A stretch of 64,000 nt of DNA from an uncultured Pseudomonadales bacterium. GTDB taxonomy: Bacteria > Patescibacteriota > Microgenomatia > UBA1400 > UBA1396. This document shows positions 6,640-55,896 of the stretch, piece after piece (the stretch's first letter is position 1; the number at the start of each line of letters is the position of its first letter). The translations under genes were made by a program, and so were the position numbers. The stretch covers positions 61,202 through 125,201 of the forward strand of contig CAYWTN010000001.1 in assembly GCA_964460975.1 (NCBI GenBank), read 5' to 3'. The notes below the pieces were generated by a model. That model made no database searches. It was not told the origin of the DNA and worked only from the letters and a program-made list of their open reading frames with translations.

Positions 6640-7869
6640 CTATTCCGAACGAAGCGCTTCGATGGGTGAAAGTCGGCTAGCCTTCCGAGCTGGGGCAACA
6701 CCAAAAACGATACCCACTCCAAGAGAAACGCCAAATGCCAAAAGTATGGCTCCAAACGTAATAACGGAAGGAAAATCAACCAAAGTGTTGAGAGCAAGAG
6801 AGCCTAAAGCCGCTATGAGCACACCAATCGAACCGCCGAACACTGAAAGCAGCGAAGCCTCAACAAGAAACTGGATGAGAATTTCGTTCGGAGTTGCACC
6901 CAGAGCCTTGCGCAATCCAATCTCACGAGTGCGCTCCGTCACAGAGACCAGCATAATGTTCATGATGCCAATACCACCCACGACCAGAGAAATGGCTGCA
7001 ATGCCGCCAAGTCCAAGAGTAAGAATACCTAAAACGCTATTAATGGTCTCTAGGATCTGGCGCTGATCAAAAACATCGTATTCGTCCTCTTCCCTTTTCT
7101 GCACGTCACGCATGTAGCGGTCGAGCTCATCAACCACCGTTTGAATATCGTCTTTTTTCTTCACTTGAACAGAAATGGACTGAATATCACGTGTGTCGAA
7201 AGCGCGAAAAGCTGCTTCGAGAGGAATAATAATGTAACTATCAAATGATGGTCCGCCAAAAGAGCTTCCTTTTTCTTCTGCTACACCAACAACTTTGAAT
7301 GTCTGAGAACCCAAACGAAAATTCTTATTGACTGGATCGATCGTTCCAAAAAGATCCTGTGCTATTTTATGACCCAAAACAGCCACGCGTTCACCAGCAC
7401 TTTCCTCAGCAGAAGTGAAAAATCTCCCTGCCGCTGCTTGGGTATTGCGAACCTGTACATAATCCACGCTTGTCCCCACAACCGTAGCATTCTTGGTTTC
7501 AGTCTGGAAACTTACCGAAGACGACTGCTGAACTTCCGGCAGCACAGCCGCAATCCTTGAGCGATCGATTCGGCGCACGTCATTGAGAATACGAGTATCA
7601 AGCTGTTTGTTCCCCATTCCAGAAACCTGCTCGTCTTGGCTAGAAAAACCACCACCCTCGGAAAAAACTCGCATAGGAAGGATGACAACCGTATTGGCTC
7701 CTAGGTCATCAAACTGCTGCTCTATATACTGCTGAATTCCGGTTCCAATAGAAGTGAGCAGAATCACCGAACCAACACCAATAATTACTCCCAACATCGT
7801 GAGAAGTGAGCGCGATTTATTGGTCCAGATTGCTTGAGCGGCAACCTTGGTCGTAGCCCCAACGTTCAT
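6640..7869 (-). CDS. ABC transporter permease, MacB-like (FtsX domain)
   Basis: 409 aa. N-terminal TM helix, large periplasmic domain and a C-terminal 3-TM FtsX-like domain. Overlaps the ATPase gene by 4 nt. Confidence 0.8.
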   Translation of the reverse strand: MNVGATTKVAAQAIWTNKSRSLLTMLGVIIGVGSVILLTSIGTGIQQYIEQQFDDLGANTVVILPMRVFSEGGGFSSQDEQVSGMGNKQLDTRILNDVRRIDRSRIAAVLPEVQQSSSVSFQTETKNATVVGTSVDYVQVRNTQAAAGRFFTSAEESAGERVAVLGHKIAQDLFGTIDPVNKNFRLGSQTFKVVGVAEEKGSSFGGPSFDSYIIIPLEAAFRAFDTRDIQSISVQVKKKDDIQTVVDELDRYMRDVQKREEDEYDVFDQRQILETINSVLGILTLGLGGIAAISLVVGGIGIMNIMLVSVTERTREIGLRKALGATPNEILIQFLVEASLLSVFGGSIGVLIAALGSLALNTLVDFPSVITFGAILLAFGVSLGVGIVFGVAPARKASRLSPIEALRSE

Positions 7870-11796: not shown

Positions 11797-14700
11797 CTAC
11801 TCACTCAGAATACGCTGAGAAAAAGCTTGCACATCTGCCGACCAATCAACCGTATATGGAAGTTTCATTTTGGTTGGTTCGGAGCTACCATTCGGGATGA
11901 GAAGGGTGATCGGAGTATTACCAGGGCTACGCTTGAGCAACTTACCAAGCTCAACCAATTTTTCTTTCGTTGTCCCTCGAGGAATTGCCAGTTCTACACC
12001 TGCTACCAAACTCTGTTCATCTTCACCCGCATCTATATGCGGAGACCAAACTTTTTCGGCAATAATTTGCGGCTCTTCATCTCGGGCATCGAGCTTACCA
12101 CGTACTAAAACGGCCAGGTCATTCTGAAAATACTTATCGCTCGTAGCATAGGTTTTGGGAAAACAAACGACTCGGATCGACCCACTCTGATCTTCGAGCG
12201 TGCCAAAAGCCATTCGTTCATTTTTGGCTTTGGTGCGAACTTCACGAATATTTTGCAAAATACCACCCAGAACAAAAGTTTGTTCCTTATGAATATCAGG
12301 ATCGATTTCAGCAATTTTTTTATCAGCCAGTTTGGTGATTTTTGTGAGCACTTTCGACATAGGATGATCGGTAAGATAAAAGCCTAACAACTCCTTTTCG
12401 TATGACAAAAGCTCTGCTTGAGGATACTCTTCAAGCTGCGGAAAAGTATCGCGAACCTGCTGCGACGACTGCGTGGCCACCGCTGCAAAAAGCGTGTCTT
12501 GTCCTTCTACAGCACTCTGGAATTGACTCGCCTGCGCTCGAATTTCCTCAAGATTTTCGAGGATACTTGAACGTGTAGAGAAGAGATCAAAAGCTCCAAC
12601 GCGAACAAGACTTTCGATAACTTTTTTATTCACTTTTCGACCATCGATTCGTTGCAAAAAGTCTGTAAAACAGCTAAACGGACCATCTTTGCGAATCTCC
12701 ATAATGTTCTCAATCGCCGCCGTACCGACGTTTTTAATAGCACCGAGCCCATAACGAACGCCCTGCTCGTTGAGAGAATCCTTATACTCCTCAATCGTGA
12801 AACCTACTTCCGACTTATTAATATCCGGCGGCAAAATAACAATTTTCATTTCACGCGAGGCCTCAACCGCCTGCATGACTTTTTCCTCACGCTTCTGGCT
12901 ATGAGAAAGCGATTCTACAGAAAGCAGCGCTGTCATGTACTCCACTGGGTACTTCACCTTCATGTAGGCGGTGCGGTAGGCAACCATGGCATAACTGGCA
13001 GCGTGCGCTTTATTAAAGCCATATCCAGCAAATTTCTCGATGTAGCTCCATACTTCTTCGGCAACTTTTTTGGTATATCCATGTTCCTCTGAGCGACGGA
13101 CAAACTCCGCTTTCTGCTCCATCATGATCTCAATTTTTTTCTTGCCAATCGCTTTGCGCAAAATATCGGCTTCACCGAGCGTATAACCAGCCATAACGTT
13201 CGCCACCGCCAACGCTTGCTCTTGGTACACCATGTAACCGTAGGTTTCTTCAAAAATGGGCTCGAGATCTGGATGAGGATATACGATCTTCTCAGGATTG
13301 TGCTTGGCTTCCACAAAACCCGGAATAAGATCCATTGGCCCAGGGCGATACAACGCGACCATAGCGGTAATATCCGAGAATTTGTTTGGCTGCAGTGTGC
13401 GCGCCACTCTTCGCATTCCAGCGGATTCGAGTTGGAAAACACCGGTGGTATCTCCACGTCCAAGCATGGCAAAAACTTCCTTGTCATCAATGGGAATCTT
13501 ATCCAGATTGACTTCAATACCGCGCGTTTTCTTCACATTTTCGATGGCTTCACCAAGAATGGAAAGGTTGCGCAAACCCAAAAAATCGAACTTGAGCAAA
13601 CCAATGGCATCATCACCCGAAACGTTGGCATCGAGTGCGTACATATCGTACTGCGTGATAATTTTTCCTTCTTTGTTTTCGCGTTGAATGGGACAGTATT
13701 TGGTGATATCGTCGTCGGCTACCACCACTGCTGCCGCGTGCACACTCGAGTGACGAATCGAACCTTCAACTTTGAGAGCAAGATCAAAAAGCTTTTTGTA
13801 TTTGGGAAGATCGCGGTACTGGGCCAATTCTGGAACCGTCTCAATGGCTTCCTGCAATCCAGTGAACTGCGGAATAAGCTTGGCAATGCGATCAGGATCG
13901 GAGTATGGCAGTCCAAGCACACGGCCAATATCACGAATCGCAACACGGGCTTCCATACGTCCAAACGTAATAACGTTGGCCACACGATCAACACCATACT
14001 TTTTGGTAACGTACTCCAAAACTTCTTCACGACGAGTATCGGCAAAATCCATATCGATATCTGGAGGCGAAGGACGCTGTGGATTGAGAAAGCGTTCAAA
14101 CTTAAGGTCATGCTCTAATGGATTCACCGTAGTAATTCCGAGCGCGTAGGACACGAGCGAACCAGCGGCACTGCCACGACCTGGCCCCACATAAATCCCA
14201 TTCTCTTTGGCCCATCCCACAAAGTCCTGCACAATCAGGAAGTAGGAAGCGTACCCTTTGGTATTAATCACTTCGAGTTCATAATCAAGACGCTTTTGCA
14301 CATCTTCATCAACGGTATCCACCACATCTGGAAGGCGATCATTAGCAAGTTGAATAAGATATGACGTATCCGACTCACCCGCTGGAACAGGAAATTTAGG
14401 CAGCACCCATTGACCAGTAGGAATAACATCTGGATCACACATCTCGGCAATCTTGAGTGTGTTCTCAACAGCGTCAGGATACTGCGCAAAAAGTTCATGC
14501 ATTTCTTCGCTACTGCGCAAATAAAAATCTGGAGAGTTGAGCATGGTCATGCGGTCCGTGTCCGAAACGAGCCGTCTCGTGGAAACACACAACAAGGCGT
14601 CTTGCGCTTCTGCATCATCTTTATCGACATAGTGCACATCATTTGTGGCTACAAGTGGTACTCCTGTTTCACGCGAAATTTTCACCATCTGGGCAGCCAC

Positions 14701-25079: not shown

Positions 25080-25910
25080 CTATCTCAAATCACCATTCGC
25101 ATCGCGCTTGGCATAGAATTCGTTCGAATCGGACCAAGCATCCCCGGCCAAAGGCTGGGTTTTACCAGGTCTGTCCTTAAAGTTTATTGGGAGAAAAGCC
25201 TCAATATCAAACACTTCCAGGTATCGAACTCCACAACCATCCAGAAAAAGGACGAGTTTGTGATAATCTTTGTATTGCTTTCCTTCTAATCCCAGAACTA
25301 CCTGCTCAAAAAACTCCCGCACCTCCCGAAGTAACTCGGTTCTATCTTTACTTGAAAATGTGAATGACGCTCGTGCCTCTTCTGGGAGAAGAGCAAGGAG
25401 TTCTCTCTTGCGCTTCTTAAAATCCTGGAAGAACTGCCTCTCTTCATTTGCATCGATCATATACTCAACCAAAAAACGATCCCAACGATAACGAGGATCC
25501 AGCGTTCGCCCTATGCGGAAATAATGATAATGCTCTAAATCCCTAGCCTCTTCTTCTCTTTTTCCAAAACCTGCCAACCTTTGTACATCAGCAAGGAGGT
25601 CTTCAAAGAGATGAAAATTCTCATCTTTTATAGAGGCTATTGCGGCATCAATAAGTGCAATCCTCTCAGAGTGAGAGGGTAGAAAATAGGAAGCACGTAT
25701 GTTTGTAAAATCCTGCCGTTTTGCTTCTGGTATGAGCGCAATGAAACGATCAAACTCTAATGCTATAAAGCGATAGAGCTTATGCACCTCTTCTTTGGAG
25801 GAACCGTACCTATCGAGAAATCCCGTTGACTCAGCAATGATTGCATTCATTTGATCAATAGATCGAACCGCATCTTCTTGAGTTCTTCTTTCTCGCTCAG
25901 ATCTCGACAT
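25080..25910 (-). CDS. Hypothetical protein (276 aa, no recognisable domain)
   Basis: Long ORF with good coding look and charged residues. No motif recognised. Confidence 0.5.
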   Translation of the reverse strand: MSRSERERRTQEDAVRSIDQMNAIIAESTGFLDRYGSSKEEVHKLYRFIALEFDRFIALIPEAKRQDFTNIRASYFLPSHSERIALIDAAIASIKDENFHLFEDLLADVQRLAGFGKREEEARDLEHYHYFRIGRTLDPRYRWDRFLVEYMIDANEERQFFQDFKKRKRELLALLPEEARASFTFSSKDRTELLREVREFFEQVVLGLEGKQYKDYHKLVLFLDGCGVRYLEVFDIEAFLPINFKDRPGKTQPLAGDAWSDSNEFYAKRDANGDLR

Positions 25911-25955: not shown

Positions 25956-26495
25956 TTAGTCTGCATTCAGCCATGGATCAGGCAAAAGTGCGCGCTGTTC
26001 ACGAGAAACTTCTGCTTCTTGCAAACCAATATACAGCCGATCGCCCGCCTGAAACGGCCAATCACTTGAGAAAGTTTCTTGTTCCCCGTTGCGAGAAACC
26101 CAAATTTTCTCCCCCTCTTGGGCACAGTACGTTTCTTCCTGGAATGTAAGGCAATTTTCAATAAGGGAAATACCGTGATCGGCAAAAAAATCGCCCCAAG
26201 TGGCGTCTGTGTCAAAAAACAAAATACTATTGGGATACTCTGGCATGAGAAAGGCGCGCTCACTGCGAAACTGCAGTTCTGGCGTACTCAGAGAAAGAAC
26301 TTTACCGCGAACAGAAATGAGCAAAGCGGCGCGCATGGGAGCAAGCAGCACTTTTTCCGTCTGTTCTTCAGAAGCGATTGCCAAGGGTTGAGAAACAGGT
26401 AATGGCTCAAATGACTGTTGGCTTCTCAAGCAACCACTGAGCAAAAACGTGGCTACCAAGAGAAAAAGAGAAGCAAGTCGCATGACGACAAGCAT
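25956..26495 (-). CDS. Putative lipoprotein
   Basis: N-terminal signal with LSGC lipobox. Confidence 0.5.
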   Translation of the reverse strand: MLVVMRLASLFLLVATFLLSGCLRSQQSFEPLPVSQPLAIASEEQTEKVLLAPMRAALLISVRGKVLSLSTPELQFRSERAFLMPEYPNSILFFDTDATWGDFFADHGISLIENCLTFQEETYCAQEGEKIWVSRNGEQETFSSDWPFQAGDRLYIGLQEAEVSREQRALLPDPWLNAD

Positions 26496-26545
26496 AGCAT
26501 CTTGACGCTTGTTCGCCTAGGATCTCTTCGATATAATGGCCATGT

Positions 26546-28054
26546 ATGTGGAATATTTTGCGCCGATCATTTACCCAAGCCATCACCGCTTGTCTTTTAG
26601 CCGCTGCCTTCTTCTTTCAAGCCAGCGCACCGGCTCTCGCCATTAATTACGCTGGTGGCACCTACACAAACCTCTGTGGAAGTGGTTACAGTGCCAACTC
26701 CCACAGCTGCAATGGCGGTTGTAACACCGGTTCTGGGAGTTGTAGTGCTGGCGGCAATTTTGTCGTGAAGTTTGTTTGTGATGGAAGACAGGGCGAATGT
26801 AGAAGCAACGAAAGCAGTTTCTCTACCAGCCAATCGGTGAGTGGCGTCGGTTGTGGTAAAACCGTTCAGATCGACGTTTTTAACAAAACCTGCCGTATGT
26901 CTAATGGCAGTTGGACTTGTGGCGACGGTGATCTCAAAGACTACATCGTTTGGTACTCTGGAGACTGTTCCAATAACAACCCTCCGCCAAGCAATCCTCA
27001 GCCCAAGCCAGATCCCACACCAACCCCTCCGGCCGATTCTTGTTCCAACTGGATGCCAATTGATGTGCAGTTCCGCAAGTCTGGAGAGACAAGCTGGACT
27101 ACCGGCTCACAGCTCACCAGGCAAGAACTCAAGGTAAACGATAAAGTTGATGCCTACTGTTTTGCCAAAAATGCTACCGCGAGTCTCAAAGACGCTAACA
27201 TGGAAATTCGCAAACCTGATGGCACAACCGAAAAGGTCAGTGGCGCACGGGTGAACGGCTACACGATTGCTCAAAACGGAGCCTACGTCTTCACCTGTAC
27301 TTCAAGCTCGCTGCGTCTCTGCTATGACAGTGATATGTTCAGCGTTCACGACAACCAAGTCAGCAGCTGTAGCGAACTTTCGGTGCTCAGTGGAAACGAT
27401 CAAACCGTGCCAGCCACCGTCAAGTTCCGAGCCGCTGGCAGAGATAATAAAGGTGATATCAAACAATACCGCTTCTTCTTTGGAGATGGCCAGCGAGTAG
27501 AAACGAGCCAAGCTGAAGTTGAGCACCGCTACGAAACATCGGGGAACTTCTGGGCCAAAGTTGAGGTAAAGGACACCAACGGCACCTGGAAAACCAGCAC
27601 GGCTTGTGAGGCCAGTGTTCGCCTCAAGTCATCCTCAATAGAGTCACACCGCTCTGGCTGCAGTGATGTCTTCATCCTGGAAGGCAATAATGCCGAAGCA
27701 CCAACCACGACTAAGTTCCGTATTACCGGCTTCGACAACAAAGGCGGCGTACAACAGTTCCGTTTAGATTTTGGCAACGGAATTGTCAAAGAACAATCTG
27801 GTGAGTACTTTGAGCAAACCTTTGATCAAGCTGGAACCTACAGTATCAAAGGCTACGTGAAAGATAGTCAAGGCAACTGGAAAGGTGGCGAAGGAAGCTG
27901 CGCCCCAACACTCTATGTGAAGACCAAGCCTCTCACCACGCAGCCCAAGACCGGAACGCCAACCAATATCTCCATCTTTGCTATTACGAGTGGATTTATT
28001 GGAACAGTGATGCTCATGCGCCACTTGAGAGTTGCCAAGAAGCACACCCGCTAA
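26546..28054 (+). CDS. Secreted surface protein with Cys-rich N-terminal region, two PKD-like repeats and a C-terminal sortase-type sorting signal
   Basis: Signal peptide. Repeats ...VKFRAAGRDNKGDIKQYRFFFGDGQ...HRYETSGNFWAKVEVKDTNG and ...TKFRITGFDNKGGVQQFRLDFGNG...GTYSIKGYVKDSQG are PKD-like. The C-terminus is LTTQPKTG + hydrophobic helix + RHLRVAKKHTR. Confidence 0.7.
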   Translation: MWNILRRSFTQAITACLLAAAFFFQASAPALAINYAGGTYTNLCGSGYSANSHSCNGGCNTGSGSCSAGGNFVVKFVCDGRQGECRSNESSFSTSQSVSGVGCGKTVQIDVFNKTCRMSNGSWTCGDGDLKDYIVWYSGDCSNNNPPPSNPQPKPDPTPTPPADSCSNWMPIDVQFRKSGETSWTTGSQLTRQELKVNDKVDAYCFAKNATASLKDANMEIRKPDGTTEKVSGARVNGYTIAQNGAYVFTCTSSSLRLCYDSDMFSVHDNQVSSCSELSVLSGNDQTVPATVKFRAAGRDNKGDIKQYRFFFGDGQRVETSQAEVEHRYETSGNFWAKVEVKDTNGTWKTSTACEASVRLKSSSIESHRSGCSDVFILEGNNAEAPTTTKFRITGFDNKGGVQQFRLDFGNGIVKEQSGEYFEQTFDQAGTYSIKGYVKDSQGNWKGGEGSCAPTLYVKTKPLTTQPKTGTPTNISIFAITSGFIGTVMLMRHLRVAKKHTR

Positions 28055-28067
28055 CAGAAAGGAACGC

Positions 28068-28775
28068 ATGGCTGCCCACCATGCTCAAGCACAGATTCCT
28101 CGACGTCGATTCCTCCCCTCTTTTGGGATCGCCTCGGCTGTGTTTGTTGCAATAGCGGTTGGTCTCCTCCTCTTTTTCCTCTGGTGGCTTCTCTTTGTGA
28201 TTGGCCCCGTGGTGGGTATCGAGGTGAAATACCGGCTCACAACGCTTAGCCGAAACGTTTTCGGCACCACCGAGGTGGCGAGCATCTTTTTCCCAAACCT
28301 CAAAGTAGATCTCCGAGGCTACGAAAGCGAACATCGCGAAAATGGCATCACAATCCCCAAAATTTTTGTTGACGAACCAGTTATTTATAACGTCGATCCC
28401 AATAATGCTGATATCTACAACGCCGCGCTCAAACAAGGCATAGCCCATGCCTCGGGGACATCATTCCCAGACAATGGAAATCTTGGCTACTACTTTGCGC
28501 ACTCCAGCGCGCCAGAGTTCCGCAGCCAATACAACGCAATTTTCTATCTTCTGGGAAAGTTGGAATCTGGCGACAGTATCTTTCTCTGGCATCACGGGAA
28601 ACGCTACGAGTATGAGGTTGCCTGGACACTCGAGACCACACCAGAAAACGTGAGCTTCCTGCATGATACCTACGACAAAGAAACGATCGTTCTGCAGACC
28701 TGCTGGCCAGCGGGTACAACCAGAGGCCGTCTCCTTGTTTTTGCCCAGCGCGTGGAAGACTCCTCAGACAAGTAA
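28068..28775 (+). CDS. Sortase family transpeptidase
   Basis: N-terminal TM helix. Conserved VLQTCWP (TLXTC-type catalytic Cys motif) and a His-containing region. Immediately downstream of, and overlapping, the putative substrate gene. Confidence 0.65.
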   Translation: MAAHHAQAQIPRRRFLPSFGIASAVFVAIAVGLLLFFLWWLLFVIGPVVGIEVKYRLTTLSRNVFGTTEVASIFFPNLKVDLRGYESEHRENGITIPKIFVDEPVIYNVDPNNADIYNAALKQGIAHASGTSFPDNGNLGYYFAHSSAPEFRSQYNAIFYLLGKLESGDSIFLWHHGKRYEYEVAWTLETTPENVSFLHDTYDKETIVLQTCWPAGTTRGRLLVFAQRVEDSSDK

Positions 28776-28779
28776 AAAA

Positions 28780-29100
28780 ATGGTATCATTGCCATATATG
28801 CGTGGATTTATAGATTTTATTCGTGAACAAGGTGTTGTGGGTCTGGCCGTGGGTTTTATCCTCGGTGGCTCCGTTTCTAAAGTGGTAAGTTCCATTGTGA
28901 ACGACCTCATCAACCCAATTGTGGGAATTGCCCTGGGAGCCGCCGGAGATCTGTCTGATGCTTCTCTCAAAGTGGGATCCGCAGAGATTCTCTATGGCAA
29001 CTTTATTAATACCGCTATCGATTTTCTTATCATTGCAGCCGTGGTGTACTTTGGTGTCCGTTTGCTCAAGCTGGACAAACTCGATCGTAAAAAGAACTAA
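28780..29100 (+). CDS. mscL: Large-conductance mechanosensitive channel
   Basis: MRGFIDFIREQGVVGLAVGFILGGSVSKVVSSIVNDLINP... is typical MscL. About 105-135 aa depending on start. Confidence 0.8.
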   Translation: MVSLPYMRGFIDFIREQGVVGLAVGFILGGSVSKVVSSIVNDLINPIVGIALGAAGDLSDASLKVGSAEILYGNFINTAIDFLIIAAVVYFGVRLLKLDKLDRKKN

Positions 29101-30851: not shown

Positions 30852-31727
30852 CTATTTTCTTCTCAAGACAATGTGGGCAATATGATCACGAAAAGCACCC
30901 ATAAAACCACATTTTGCCACGAGCTCTTCCCCTTCTGCATCAAGAACATACTGACGCAAAGAAAGGTTGAGCGCTGCCACTTTGTCTTCGGCATGTAAGA
31001 GTGCAGTCAAGAGATGTGCGTAATTGAGAGAATTCACTGGAGAGGTTTGTATGAGAGCATTCCGCGCATCGTTACTGGGTGGGCGATGTTCCATTCTTGT
31101 ACCAATAAATGCTTCAAAATCGGGAACGGGCGTGTTCTGCTCCTGCGCCAGCTCGATAACATATTGGTAAGCTGCCAGCGTAAGCATGGCAACGTACTCA
31201 AAGAAATTCTCGGCAAGCTTATCCTTCCCCTGAACCTTCTGCAACGCCTCCACATAAAAATGTTTAGGAAGCTCCACTCGCGAGCCAGATTGGGCTAACT
31301 CTTTTCGGCGCTTCTCATGCAGAGAAAGTGATTCTATACGAAGATGAGATGTATCCTTTTCGTCATAGTATTGAACTATATATCCGAGACTTCTAAGAAT
31401 CTTTTCTTTGGCAACTTCTCTTACTCGCTGCACACGATCGTCAAACTGAAACTCCAAAACATAAATGGAAGGAAAAAGTTCTTGGAACGCACTCTGCGCA
31501 TAACGGTTAAAAGCATTATAGGCCTCCGCCTGGAAAGGAAAATCATTTTGCGCGCTTGTACCCAAGTTTGCTGGGTAGGAAGGCGTGAGGAGAAGATGAT
31601 AATGCACTCTATGATTTTGGATAAGATCTGCCAGAGCTTCCTCGTAAATACGTTGATACTCCCTTGCCTGTTCTTGGCTAAAACCGGTATAACCCGGGCT
31701 CGATGGCCGTTCATGATATCTGCTCAC
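30852..31727 (-). CDS. Hypothetical protein (291 aa)
   Basis: Long ORF. No motif recognised. Confidence 0.5.
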   Translation of the reverse strand: MSRYHERPSSPGYTGFSQEQAREYQRIYEEALADLIQNHRVHYHLLLTPSYPANLGTSAQNDFPFQAEAYNAFNRYAQSAFQELFPSIYVLEFQFDDRVQRVREVAKEKILRSLGYIVQYYDEKDTSHLRIESLSLHEKRRKELAQSGSRVELPKHFYVEALQKVQGKDKLAENFFEYVAMLTLAAYQYVIELAQEQNTPVPDFEAFIGTRMEHRPPSNDARNALIQTSPVNSLNYAHLLTALLHAEDKVAALNLSLRQYVLDAEGEELVAKCGFMGAFRDHIAHIVLRRK

Positions 31728-41445: not shown

Positions 41446-41535
41446 TGGCGGAGAGGGCGAGATTCGAACTCGCGGTGCCATTGCTGACACGGAGGTTTAG
41501 TAAACCTCTGCACTCGGCCACTATGCGACCTCTCC
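41446..41535 (-). tRNA. tRNA-Ser, type II with long variable arm and encoded CCA; anticodon loop UUACUAA gives apparent anticodon ACU
   Basis: GGAGAGG-TC-GCA-TAGTGGCCGAG-TGC-A-GAGGT-TTACTAA-ACCTC-CGTGTCAGCAATGGCACC-GCGAG-TTCGAAT-CTCGC-CCTCTCC-G-CCA. Confidence 0.8.
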
Positions 41536-55368: not shown

Positions 55369-55896
55369 AAACAGAAAAGCAAAAACATGCACCAGCCGCG
55401 CCGGTGAGGAAAAAGTGGAGATGCCGGGGAACGACCCCGGGTCCGAAAAAGAAACATCAACAAGGACTACGCGTGTAGAAGCATTTTGGCTCGAAGCAGA
55501 AAACGAGAAATGATCAAAACTGTTTTCTGCGCCAATGGAAGGTCTTAGCAGATTGGAGTCATTGCGCCCCAAACCTGAGCATATTTTCTGTGTTTACACC
55601 TTTGCACCCACGAAAATAAGATGAGATACAAAGGCGCCTTTTACGCAAAAACGTAAGAAGGAGCAGTGAAAGTGGAAGCCACTTCGCGAGCGAAGGACTT
55701 AGCAGCTGTCACAGCTTTGCCGAATGAATTGGCATGTATTGTTTTGACCCATAACGAAGGTCAATCGACGCGCCCATGTTCACGATCTCTCCCGTCAAAT
55801 CAGTACATCCCCAATTTGCTTAAGAAGCTCTACCCTCTATTATAGCAAAACAGCCCTTGCCAGTCACGTGAGTGGTTCGCTACACTAACCCCAAGC

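Follow-up and report, generated by a model that had tools for sequence, protein, structure and literature searches.

A stretch of 64,000 nucleotides from contig CAYWTN010000001.1 (assembly GCA_964460975.1, positions 61,202 to 125,201, forward strand; this whole stretch is called the window below) carries two adjacent genes that probably constitute a surface-display cassette of a Microgenomates-type bacterium of the Candidate Phyla Radiation (CPR; Patescibacteria). The upstream gene encodes a secreted protein with a Cys-rich head, two PKD domains and the C-terminal signal QPKTG; the downstream gene encodes a sortase, which probably acts on the QPxTG signal of its neighbor. Comparison of homologous sequences gives good support to the assignment of the two as a sortase and its substrate with a non-canonical QPxTG signal, and it is plausible that the system is a dedicated one, serving a single substrate and independent of a housekeeping sortase. 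Coordinates of the features are given in Table 1.

The QPxTG signal and the substrate family

A first-pass annotation of this DNA had described the upstream protein as having the tripartite layout of a sortase substrate with a motif other than LPXTG, and all of its features were found in place. A pentapeptide ending in TG, a hydrophobic stretch and a basic tail lie at the extreme C-terminus in the order ...KPLTTQPKTGTPT-NISIFAITSGFIGTVMLM-RHLRVAKKHTR. The pentapeptide is flanked as KPLTT-QPKTG-TPT, after which come the hydrophobic stretch and the tail; the peptide covering the sorting signal around Q466-G470 is KPLTTQPKTGTPTN. Gln takes the first position of the motif, at which an LPXTG anchor has Leu or another hydrophobic residue. 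No open reading frame (ORF) in the window other than the substrate was found to have a plausible tripartite C-terminal signal.

The motif is conserved to a degree that, judged from the alignments, is far beyond chance, because Q, P, T and G are invariant at a mean identity of only 32% and QPxTG recurs in nearly all relatives. Among the substrate homologues (105 sequences, 29-68% identity) it recurs in 102, mostly 30-38 residues before the C-terminus, and its first residue is Gln in every one of the 102. In a 49-sequence alignment, to which the mean column identity of 32% refers, the invariant residues are Q466, P467, T469, G470 and T473. The extended consensus reads T-[KEQ]-P-[LIM]-T-x-Q-P-x-T-G-T-P-T; beyond it, the transmembrane segment and the tail vary from one homologue to another while the motif is fixed. 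QPxTG occupies the position that is held by LPxTG in proteins encoded beside the sister sortases (clade II, see below). Two candidate motifs had been proposed, QPKTG and LTTQP. The former stands, in the general form Q-P-x-T-G; the latter was rejected, the upstream P-[LIM]-T being less conserved than QPxTG and having no counterpart in the clade II neighbors.

The rest of the substrate is modular. The Cys-rich N-terminal region and the two PKD-like repeats noted on first reading were both recovered: 10 Cys fall in residues 33-142, and two stretches match PKD profiles above cut-off (PF18911, 54.3 bits; PF00801, 53.9 bits) and show the PKD fold in the AlphaFold2 (AF2) model, which has a mean predicted local distance difference test score (pLDDT) of 87.7. 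The signal peptide, delimited by eye from the sequence, reads MWNILRRS-FTQAITACLLAAAFFF-QASAPALA/I, the slash marking the predicted cleavage. All 104 homologues compared have the PKD-PKD module together with the signal; 84 have the Cys-rich head, 40 have the middle domain, and some bear unrelated N-termini. The pattern is that of a constant stalk with exchangeable tips.

The Cys-rich head itself forms a small family with 138 representatives among 1.84 billion proteins, usually located straight after the signal peptide. The proteins that carry it (P0227-P0229, P0237-P0349) fall into three types by their C-terminal signals: i) QPxTG-TPT; ii) LPKTG-LP followed by a long, conserved tail that has ...W(Q/E)x(R/K)(E/Q)F at its end; and iii) [TSAN]PxTG with a GWxxRK..W tail. 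Among the head proteins of the LPKTG type that were looked up, none adjoins a sortase.

A perfect TATAAT is located at 26532-26537, 8 nt 5' of the substrate ATG, with no Shine-Dalgarno sequence in between, and the substrate transcript may have little or no leader. This hexamer escaped the consensus promoter scan because no -35 hexamer lies at 16-18 nt from it; the promoter and terminator scan as a whole gave counts no higher than shuffled controls.

The sortase and its pairing with the substrate

The sortase-family gene with the sequence VLQTCWP, recognized on first reading, matches PF04203 with 66.8 bits (cut-off 26.6) and TIGR01076 with 48 bits (cut-off 39.35). The His-Cys-Arg triad, whose absence from an alignment had been named as the sign of a misassignment, is complete, and its three residues, H145, C212 and R221, do not vary among 120 homologues. 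The AF2 model (pLDDT 77.7) consists of an N-terminal membrane helix and an eight-stranded sortase beta-barrel, in which His145 sits at the end of strand 139-143. A Foldseek search of the PDB with this model returned 135 matches at E ≤ 0.001 (best E ~1e-10), and all 50 of those listed are sortases. By profile, triad and modeled fold the downstream gene thus encodes a true member of the sortase family, with predicted transpeptidase activity. Cys212 and Arg221 align with C184 and R197 of Staphylococcus aureus SrtA. H127 was considered as the catalytic His and rejected; it is 95% conserved, yet it falls within a strand that aligns with F103 of SrtA.

The two genes are tightly linked on one strand. 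An overlap between the substrate stop and the sortase start had been reported, which is probably an artifact of taking the longest version of the sortase ORF, from TTG 28032. The substrate stop is TAA 28052-28054, and the sortase likely starts at ATG 28068, leaving a gap of 13 nt rather than an overlap, since the database protein P0001 begins at this ATG and AAAGGAA lies just upstream of it.

The pairing is conserved across genomes. When one genome per species was scanned, 128 genomes matched the sortase family patterns, and 79 loci (L001-L079) were fetched. A neighbor-joining (NJ) tree splits clade I, defined as the window enzyme and its relatives of at least 44% identity plus L048 (40%, placed by the tree), from a sister clade II of at least 6380 protein clusters. 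The claim that substrate and sortase form a pair was upheld in clade I: in the loci L001-L047 and L051, a QPxTG protein is encoded upstream on the same strand in all 46 that have upstream DNA, directly adjacent in 41 and 0.5-3 kb off in 5; L048 is likewise preceded by a QPxTG protein. In a Woesebacteria pair the NCBI accessions are consecutive. No other neighboring gene of the pair is conserved across the related loci, and neither the window nor the ~10 kb around the 48 related loci showed a second sortase. The further claim of a single adjacent substrate holds only for the DNA covered, namely the window and the related loci.

Clade II loci present a more varied picture. Where these sortases have a substrate beside them, it is mostly of the LPxTG type; the motifs are LPKTG, LPPTG, LPKSG, LPATG, LPVAG, TPKTG, FPETG or APKAG (QPxTG in L053 and L070, see below), placed as in the substrate with respect to the membrane helix. 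About 18 loci have no adjacent substrate. In L052 the sortase adjoins a PKD-PKD protein with LPKSG at its end, and because of it the Gln form appears, from these sequences, to be a derived variant of the LPxTG-type signal that arose within an older sortase-PKD partnership. Locus L054 has two sortase genes (6835-7536 and 13105-14016) that are separated by ~6 kb, and LPKTG and LPITG proteins are encoded nearby. The substrate-less clade II sortases often adjoin genes for a DsbA-like thioredoxin and VKOR (L084, 684-2707; L057, L059, L063 and L075, ~2 kb away), which suggests a general secretion and oxidative-folding cluster and recalls the discussion of MdbA/VKOR in PMC6744442.

Homologues of both proteins come from Patescibacteria, in records named Woesebacteria, Gottesmanbacteria and Pacebacteria/Paceibacterota; the databases name them just "sortase" and "PKD domain-containing protein". 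In many records of metagenome-assembled genomes that contain the pair, the title reads "uncultured Pseudomonadales", "Gammaproteobacteria", "Vitreimonas sp." or "Clostridia bacterium", and these titles are probably taxonomic mislabels.

The two proteins can be placed in a mechanism as follows. The 502-aa protein would be exported by Sec, and disulfides would form in the Cys-rich head as the protein folds outside the cell. The C-terminal hydrophobic stretch and basic tail would hold the substrate in the membrane, where the membrane-anchored sortase, encoded 13 nt downstream, would recognize T-x-P-[LIM]-T-x-Q-P-x-T-G-T-P-T. Cys212 would attack the T469-G470 bond to form a thioacyl intermediate, and Thr469 would then be passed to an amine nucleophile, most likely a peptidoglycan precursor. 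As the outcome, the PKD-PKD stalk would be covalently fixed to the wall with the variable N-terminal head facing outward, the head probably being an adhesin for a partner cell or a substrate.

Competing explanations and the class of the enzyme

Several points weigh against this mechanism or against its specificity. The cleavage position, the nucleophile and the wall attachment are carried over from the established sortase mechanism (reviewed in PMC8225981), the site between T469 and G470 in particular being placed by analogy with the cut between Thr and Gly of LPXTG, and the adhesin role is likewise an inference. The LPXTG-anchor models TIGR01167 and PF00746 match neither the last 60 residues of the substrate nor the homologue P0130, even at E ≤ 10; the LPKTG protein beside the clade II sortase L074 scores 15.5 with an LPXTG-anchor model, against a cut-off of 15.9. 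Clade II-type sortases in two loci, L053 and L070, adjoin QPxTG proteins, so the enzyme family may tolerate many residues at position 1 and clade I may not be Gln-specific. Comparison of Q-paired with L-paired sortases yielded G140, Y142, Q154, K164, E103, I125 and I207 as candidate specificity positions. They were rejected as determinants: they follow phylogeny, as is evident from L053 and L070, which have the clade II residues yet QPxTG neighbors.

The explanation that survives best next to a dedicated pair leaves the substrate relationship intact and disputes only its exclusivity and its independence from housekeeping functions. The enzyme would be the sole, general sortase of the cell, handling QPxTG, LPxTG and other xPxTG signals, with the PKD protein as its most conserved, co-transcribed client. 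Two features argue for selective recognition rather than such tolerance, the extended TPT flank and the presence of Gln at position 1 in 102 of 102 motif-bearing homologues; moreover, within 10 kb no other sorting-signal protein was found in the 48 clade I loci. These observations have to be set against the finding of one sortase in the window and one in each clade I locus, and against the description of a complete Microgenomates genome with "a sortase" (PMC7143001); small CPR genomes may have this sortase alone, which then could serve other substrates. A general enzyme would also fit the variation at position 1 of the neighbor motifs in the wider family (L, T, F, A, Q), the coupling of clade II-type enzymes with QPxTG in L053 and L070, and the occurrence of LPKTG or [TSA]PxTG signals on proteins with the same head, away from any sortase. 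On balance a general sortase is a real possibility that falls short of being probable. Somewhat more doubtful still is the most far-reaching form of the dedicated-pair reading, in which clade I would be a distinct sortase class, Gln-selective (QPxTG-TPT), co-evolved with one modular adhesin family and orthogonal to LPxTG-type signals; it is put forward as a tentative proposal.

The class of the enzyme bears on another explanation. An assignment to a sortase class was tried, as the first-pass annotation had recommended, and no NCBIfam class model reaches its cut-off. The best match is the class C model NF033745, with 54.8 bits against a cut-off of 160, followed by class D (35.7 against 165), SrtD (34.3 against 140), class E (28.4 against 160) and GN (13 against 158); the class A, B and F models returned no match at E ≤ 0.1. 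The sequence therefore places the enzyme in the sortase superfamily but below the threshold of every class tested (A-F, GN). The nearest PDB entries by phmmer are the class C pilus sortases 8gr6, 8gmx and 2xwg (E 3e-9 to 3e-7), and the top Foldseek structures are 2xwg, 6ixz and 3tbe, also of class C, with class A and class D structures close behind.

Class C is thus the nearest class by phmmer, by Foldseek and by the NCBIfam class models, and a sortase beside a tandem Ig-like substrate is a typical pilus locus. Lys399 in PKD domain 2, moreover, is invariant in the 49-sequence alignment, although a role as the nucleophile is hypothetical. The enzyme might therefore be a pilus-type polymerase that joins Thr469 to a lysine of the next PKD protein, to give a covalent Ig-like fiber instead of, or before, attachment to the wall. 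This is improbable. The class C score of 54.8 bits is far from 160, and class A and class D structures match nearly as well. The lid motif DP[FWY] before the catalytic His occurs in none of 120 family members (sought as a sequence motif). Nor does any of the 120 have a C-terminal membrane anchor, sought as a hydrophobic run of at least 16 residues after the catalytic Cys; the median distance from QTCWP to the end of the protein is 17 residues (n=120). On the substrate side there is a single gene per locus, with no minor pilins and with no pilin, Cna_B or isopeptide Pfam domain.

The least likely explanation, a very improbable one, is that the C-terminal helix is a plain, uncleaved tail anchor and the sortase acts on other proteins; the LPXTG-anchor hidden Markov models do miss the segment and its processing is predicted only, but a plain anchor leaves unexplained both the invariant Q-P-x-T-G-T-P-T ahead of a poorly conserved helix at 29-68% identity and the synteny with the sortase in 46 of 46 loci in which no other neighbor is conserved.

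Among known systems, the closest functional analogue of the pair is SrtB with IsdC, encoded in the isd loci of S. aureus and Bacillus anthracis, and the nearest by sequence and fold is class C. SrtB is likewise a specialized sortase encoded beside a substrate with a tripartite signal, and in both systems the motif starts not with Leu but with a polar amide or a small residue (NPQTN in SrtB); the class B motif is tabulated as (N/S/P)PXTG (PMC8225981). The enzyme described here differs in that no class B model matches at E ≤ 0.1 and no SrtB is among the best PDB matches, and its substrate is, instead of the heme-binding NEAT protein IsdC, a PKD stalk with a Cys-rich head and with QPxTG plus a conserved TPT, in a CPR host. 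The class C enzymes (Actinomyces oris SrtC1, 2xwg; Clostridium perfringens SrtC, 6ixz; Streptococcus agalactiae SrtC1, 3tbe) provide the best sequence and fold matches and are also encoded beside substrates with Ig-like domains; the low class score, the missing lid motif and C-terminal anchor, the lone substrate gene and the lack of pilin domains set the present enzyme apart from them. With the housekeeping sortases of classes A and E (motifs LPXTG and LAXTG) it shares the triad, the fold, an N-terminal anchor and a tripartite substrate signal. Class E is a precedent for a class defined by one changed motif position (PMC5148588, PMC8225981). In the present case, unlike in class E, position 1 and not position 2 has changed, from Leu to Gln; the class E model gives 28.4 bits against 160 and the class A model no match, and synteny ties the enzyme to one particular substrate family.

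Reports on CPR sortases (PMC6744442, PMC7143001, PMC4736985, PMC5220378) extend to the statement that CPR genomes encode them. One of the families, fam000526 (Meheust et al. 2019, PMC6744442), probably the same broad family as the enzyme described here, was reported as near-ubiquitous in Microgenomates, in terms of presence and absence only. No mention of a QPxTG sortase signal, nor of any substrate or motif of this CPR family, was found in the literature searched, papers in subscription journals lying outside that search, and both the signal and the conserved pairing with a PKD protein appear to be previously undescribed.

Genomic setting and significance

Table 1. Features of the substrate-sortase gene pair (positions in the window; aa, amino acids; nt, nucleotides)
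Feature	Position	Strand	Basis
Substrate gene; 502-aa secreted modular PKD-domain surface protein ending QPKTG	26546..28054	+	ORF list; identical database protein P0121
Sec-type signal peptide, aa 1-32, predicted cleavage after ALA	26546..26641	+	Sequence inspection; AF2 helix 2-23
Cys-rich head domain, aa 33-142 (110 residues, 10 Cys)	26642..26971	+	No Pfam or NCBIfam family matched
Pro-rich linker NNNPPPSNPQPKPDPTPTPP	26972..27031	+	Sequence; AF2 pLDDT <50 at residues 143-158
Middle beta-sandwich domain, aa 163-268, optional in family	27032..27349	+	AF2 strands, pLDDT >90
PKD domain 1, aa 273-361	27362..27628	+	Pfam; AF2 model
PKD domain 2, aa 370-459	27653..27922	+	Pfam; AF2 model
Sorting motif QPKTG, Q466-G470	27941..27955	+	Translation; conservation across homologues
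Hydrophobic membrane-spanning stretch NISIFAITSGFIGTVMLM, 18 residues	27965..28018	+	Sequence; AF2 helix 473-501
Basic cytoplasmic tail RHLRVAKKHTR	28019..28051	+	Sequence; basic tail found across homologues
Intergenic spacer, 13 nt, with AAAGGAA ribosome-binding site	28055..28067	+	
Sortase gene, 235 aa from ATG 28068	28068..28775	+	PF04203, TIGR01076; identical database protein P0001
Sortase N-terminal membrane anchor, aa 19-45	28122..28202	+	Sequence; AF2 helix 19-65
Catalytic His145 (YYFAHSS)	28500..28502	+	Invariant in 120 homologues; aligned to AH of class C sortase 8gmx
Catalytic Cys212 (VLQTCWP)	28701..28703	+	Invariant in 120 homologues
Catalytic Arg221	28728..28730	+	Invariant in 120 homologues

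The neighborhood of the pair in the window is chromosomal and of housekeeping character, with genes for DnaE, GatA/GatB, a Clp ATPase, an M48 peptidase, tRNAs and the transfer-messenger RNA (tmRNA). A gene for the mechanosensitive channel MscL (28798-29100, + strand) begins 22 nt past the sortase stop; none of the related loci has it close to the pair. Three flanking ORFs on the - strand (25956-26495, 25080-25910 and 30852-31727) have no Pfam or NCBIfam match, and none of them is kept beside the pair in relatives. The first of these, a 179-aa ORF upstream of the substrate, starts with a lipoprotein-like signal (...LLSGC).

Two RNA genes of the window were also recorded. ARAGORN predicts a tRNA-Ser with the anticodon ACU, and thus A at position 34, at 41446-41535 (- strand); the anticodon lies in a 7-nt loop, tt-ACT-aa, and the Rfam tRNA score is 51.4 bits. 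A34 is unusual in bacterial tRNAs apart from tRNA-Arg(ACG). A full-length tmRNA gene is located at 55413-55812 (- strand; Rfam RF00023, 88.4 bits).

The CPR bacteria make up a large share of bacterial diversity; most of them have not been cultivated, and attachment to other cells appears to be their way of life. The construction of their surfaces is largely unexplained, and the papers found just say that they "have a sortase". The pair described here identifies a concrete and widely conserved client of a CPR sortase, a PKD-PKD stalk with interchangeable N-terminal heads, together with the signal that marks it. Such proteins are annotated only as "PKD domain-containing protein" because the standard LPXTG models miss the QPxTG signal. 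A model of this signal would allow the surface proteins of CPR bacteria to be cataloged systematically, and with them candidate host-attachment factors. If the enzyme is Gln-selective, it and its signal would be a naturally orthogonal pair of reagent and tag for sortase-mediated ligation. If clade I is a distinct class, Microgenomates would possess a private channel to display covalently, or even polymerize, a stalk with variable host-binding heads. Mechanistically the pair is an extension of the well-understood sortase system, and it offers a useful handle on the surface biology of the CPR.

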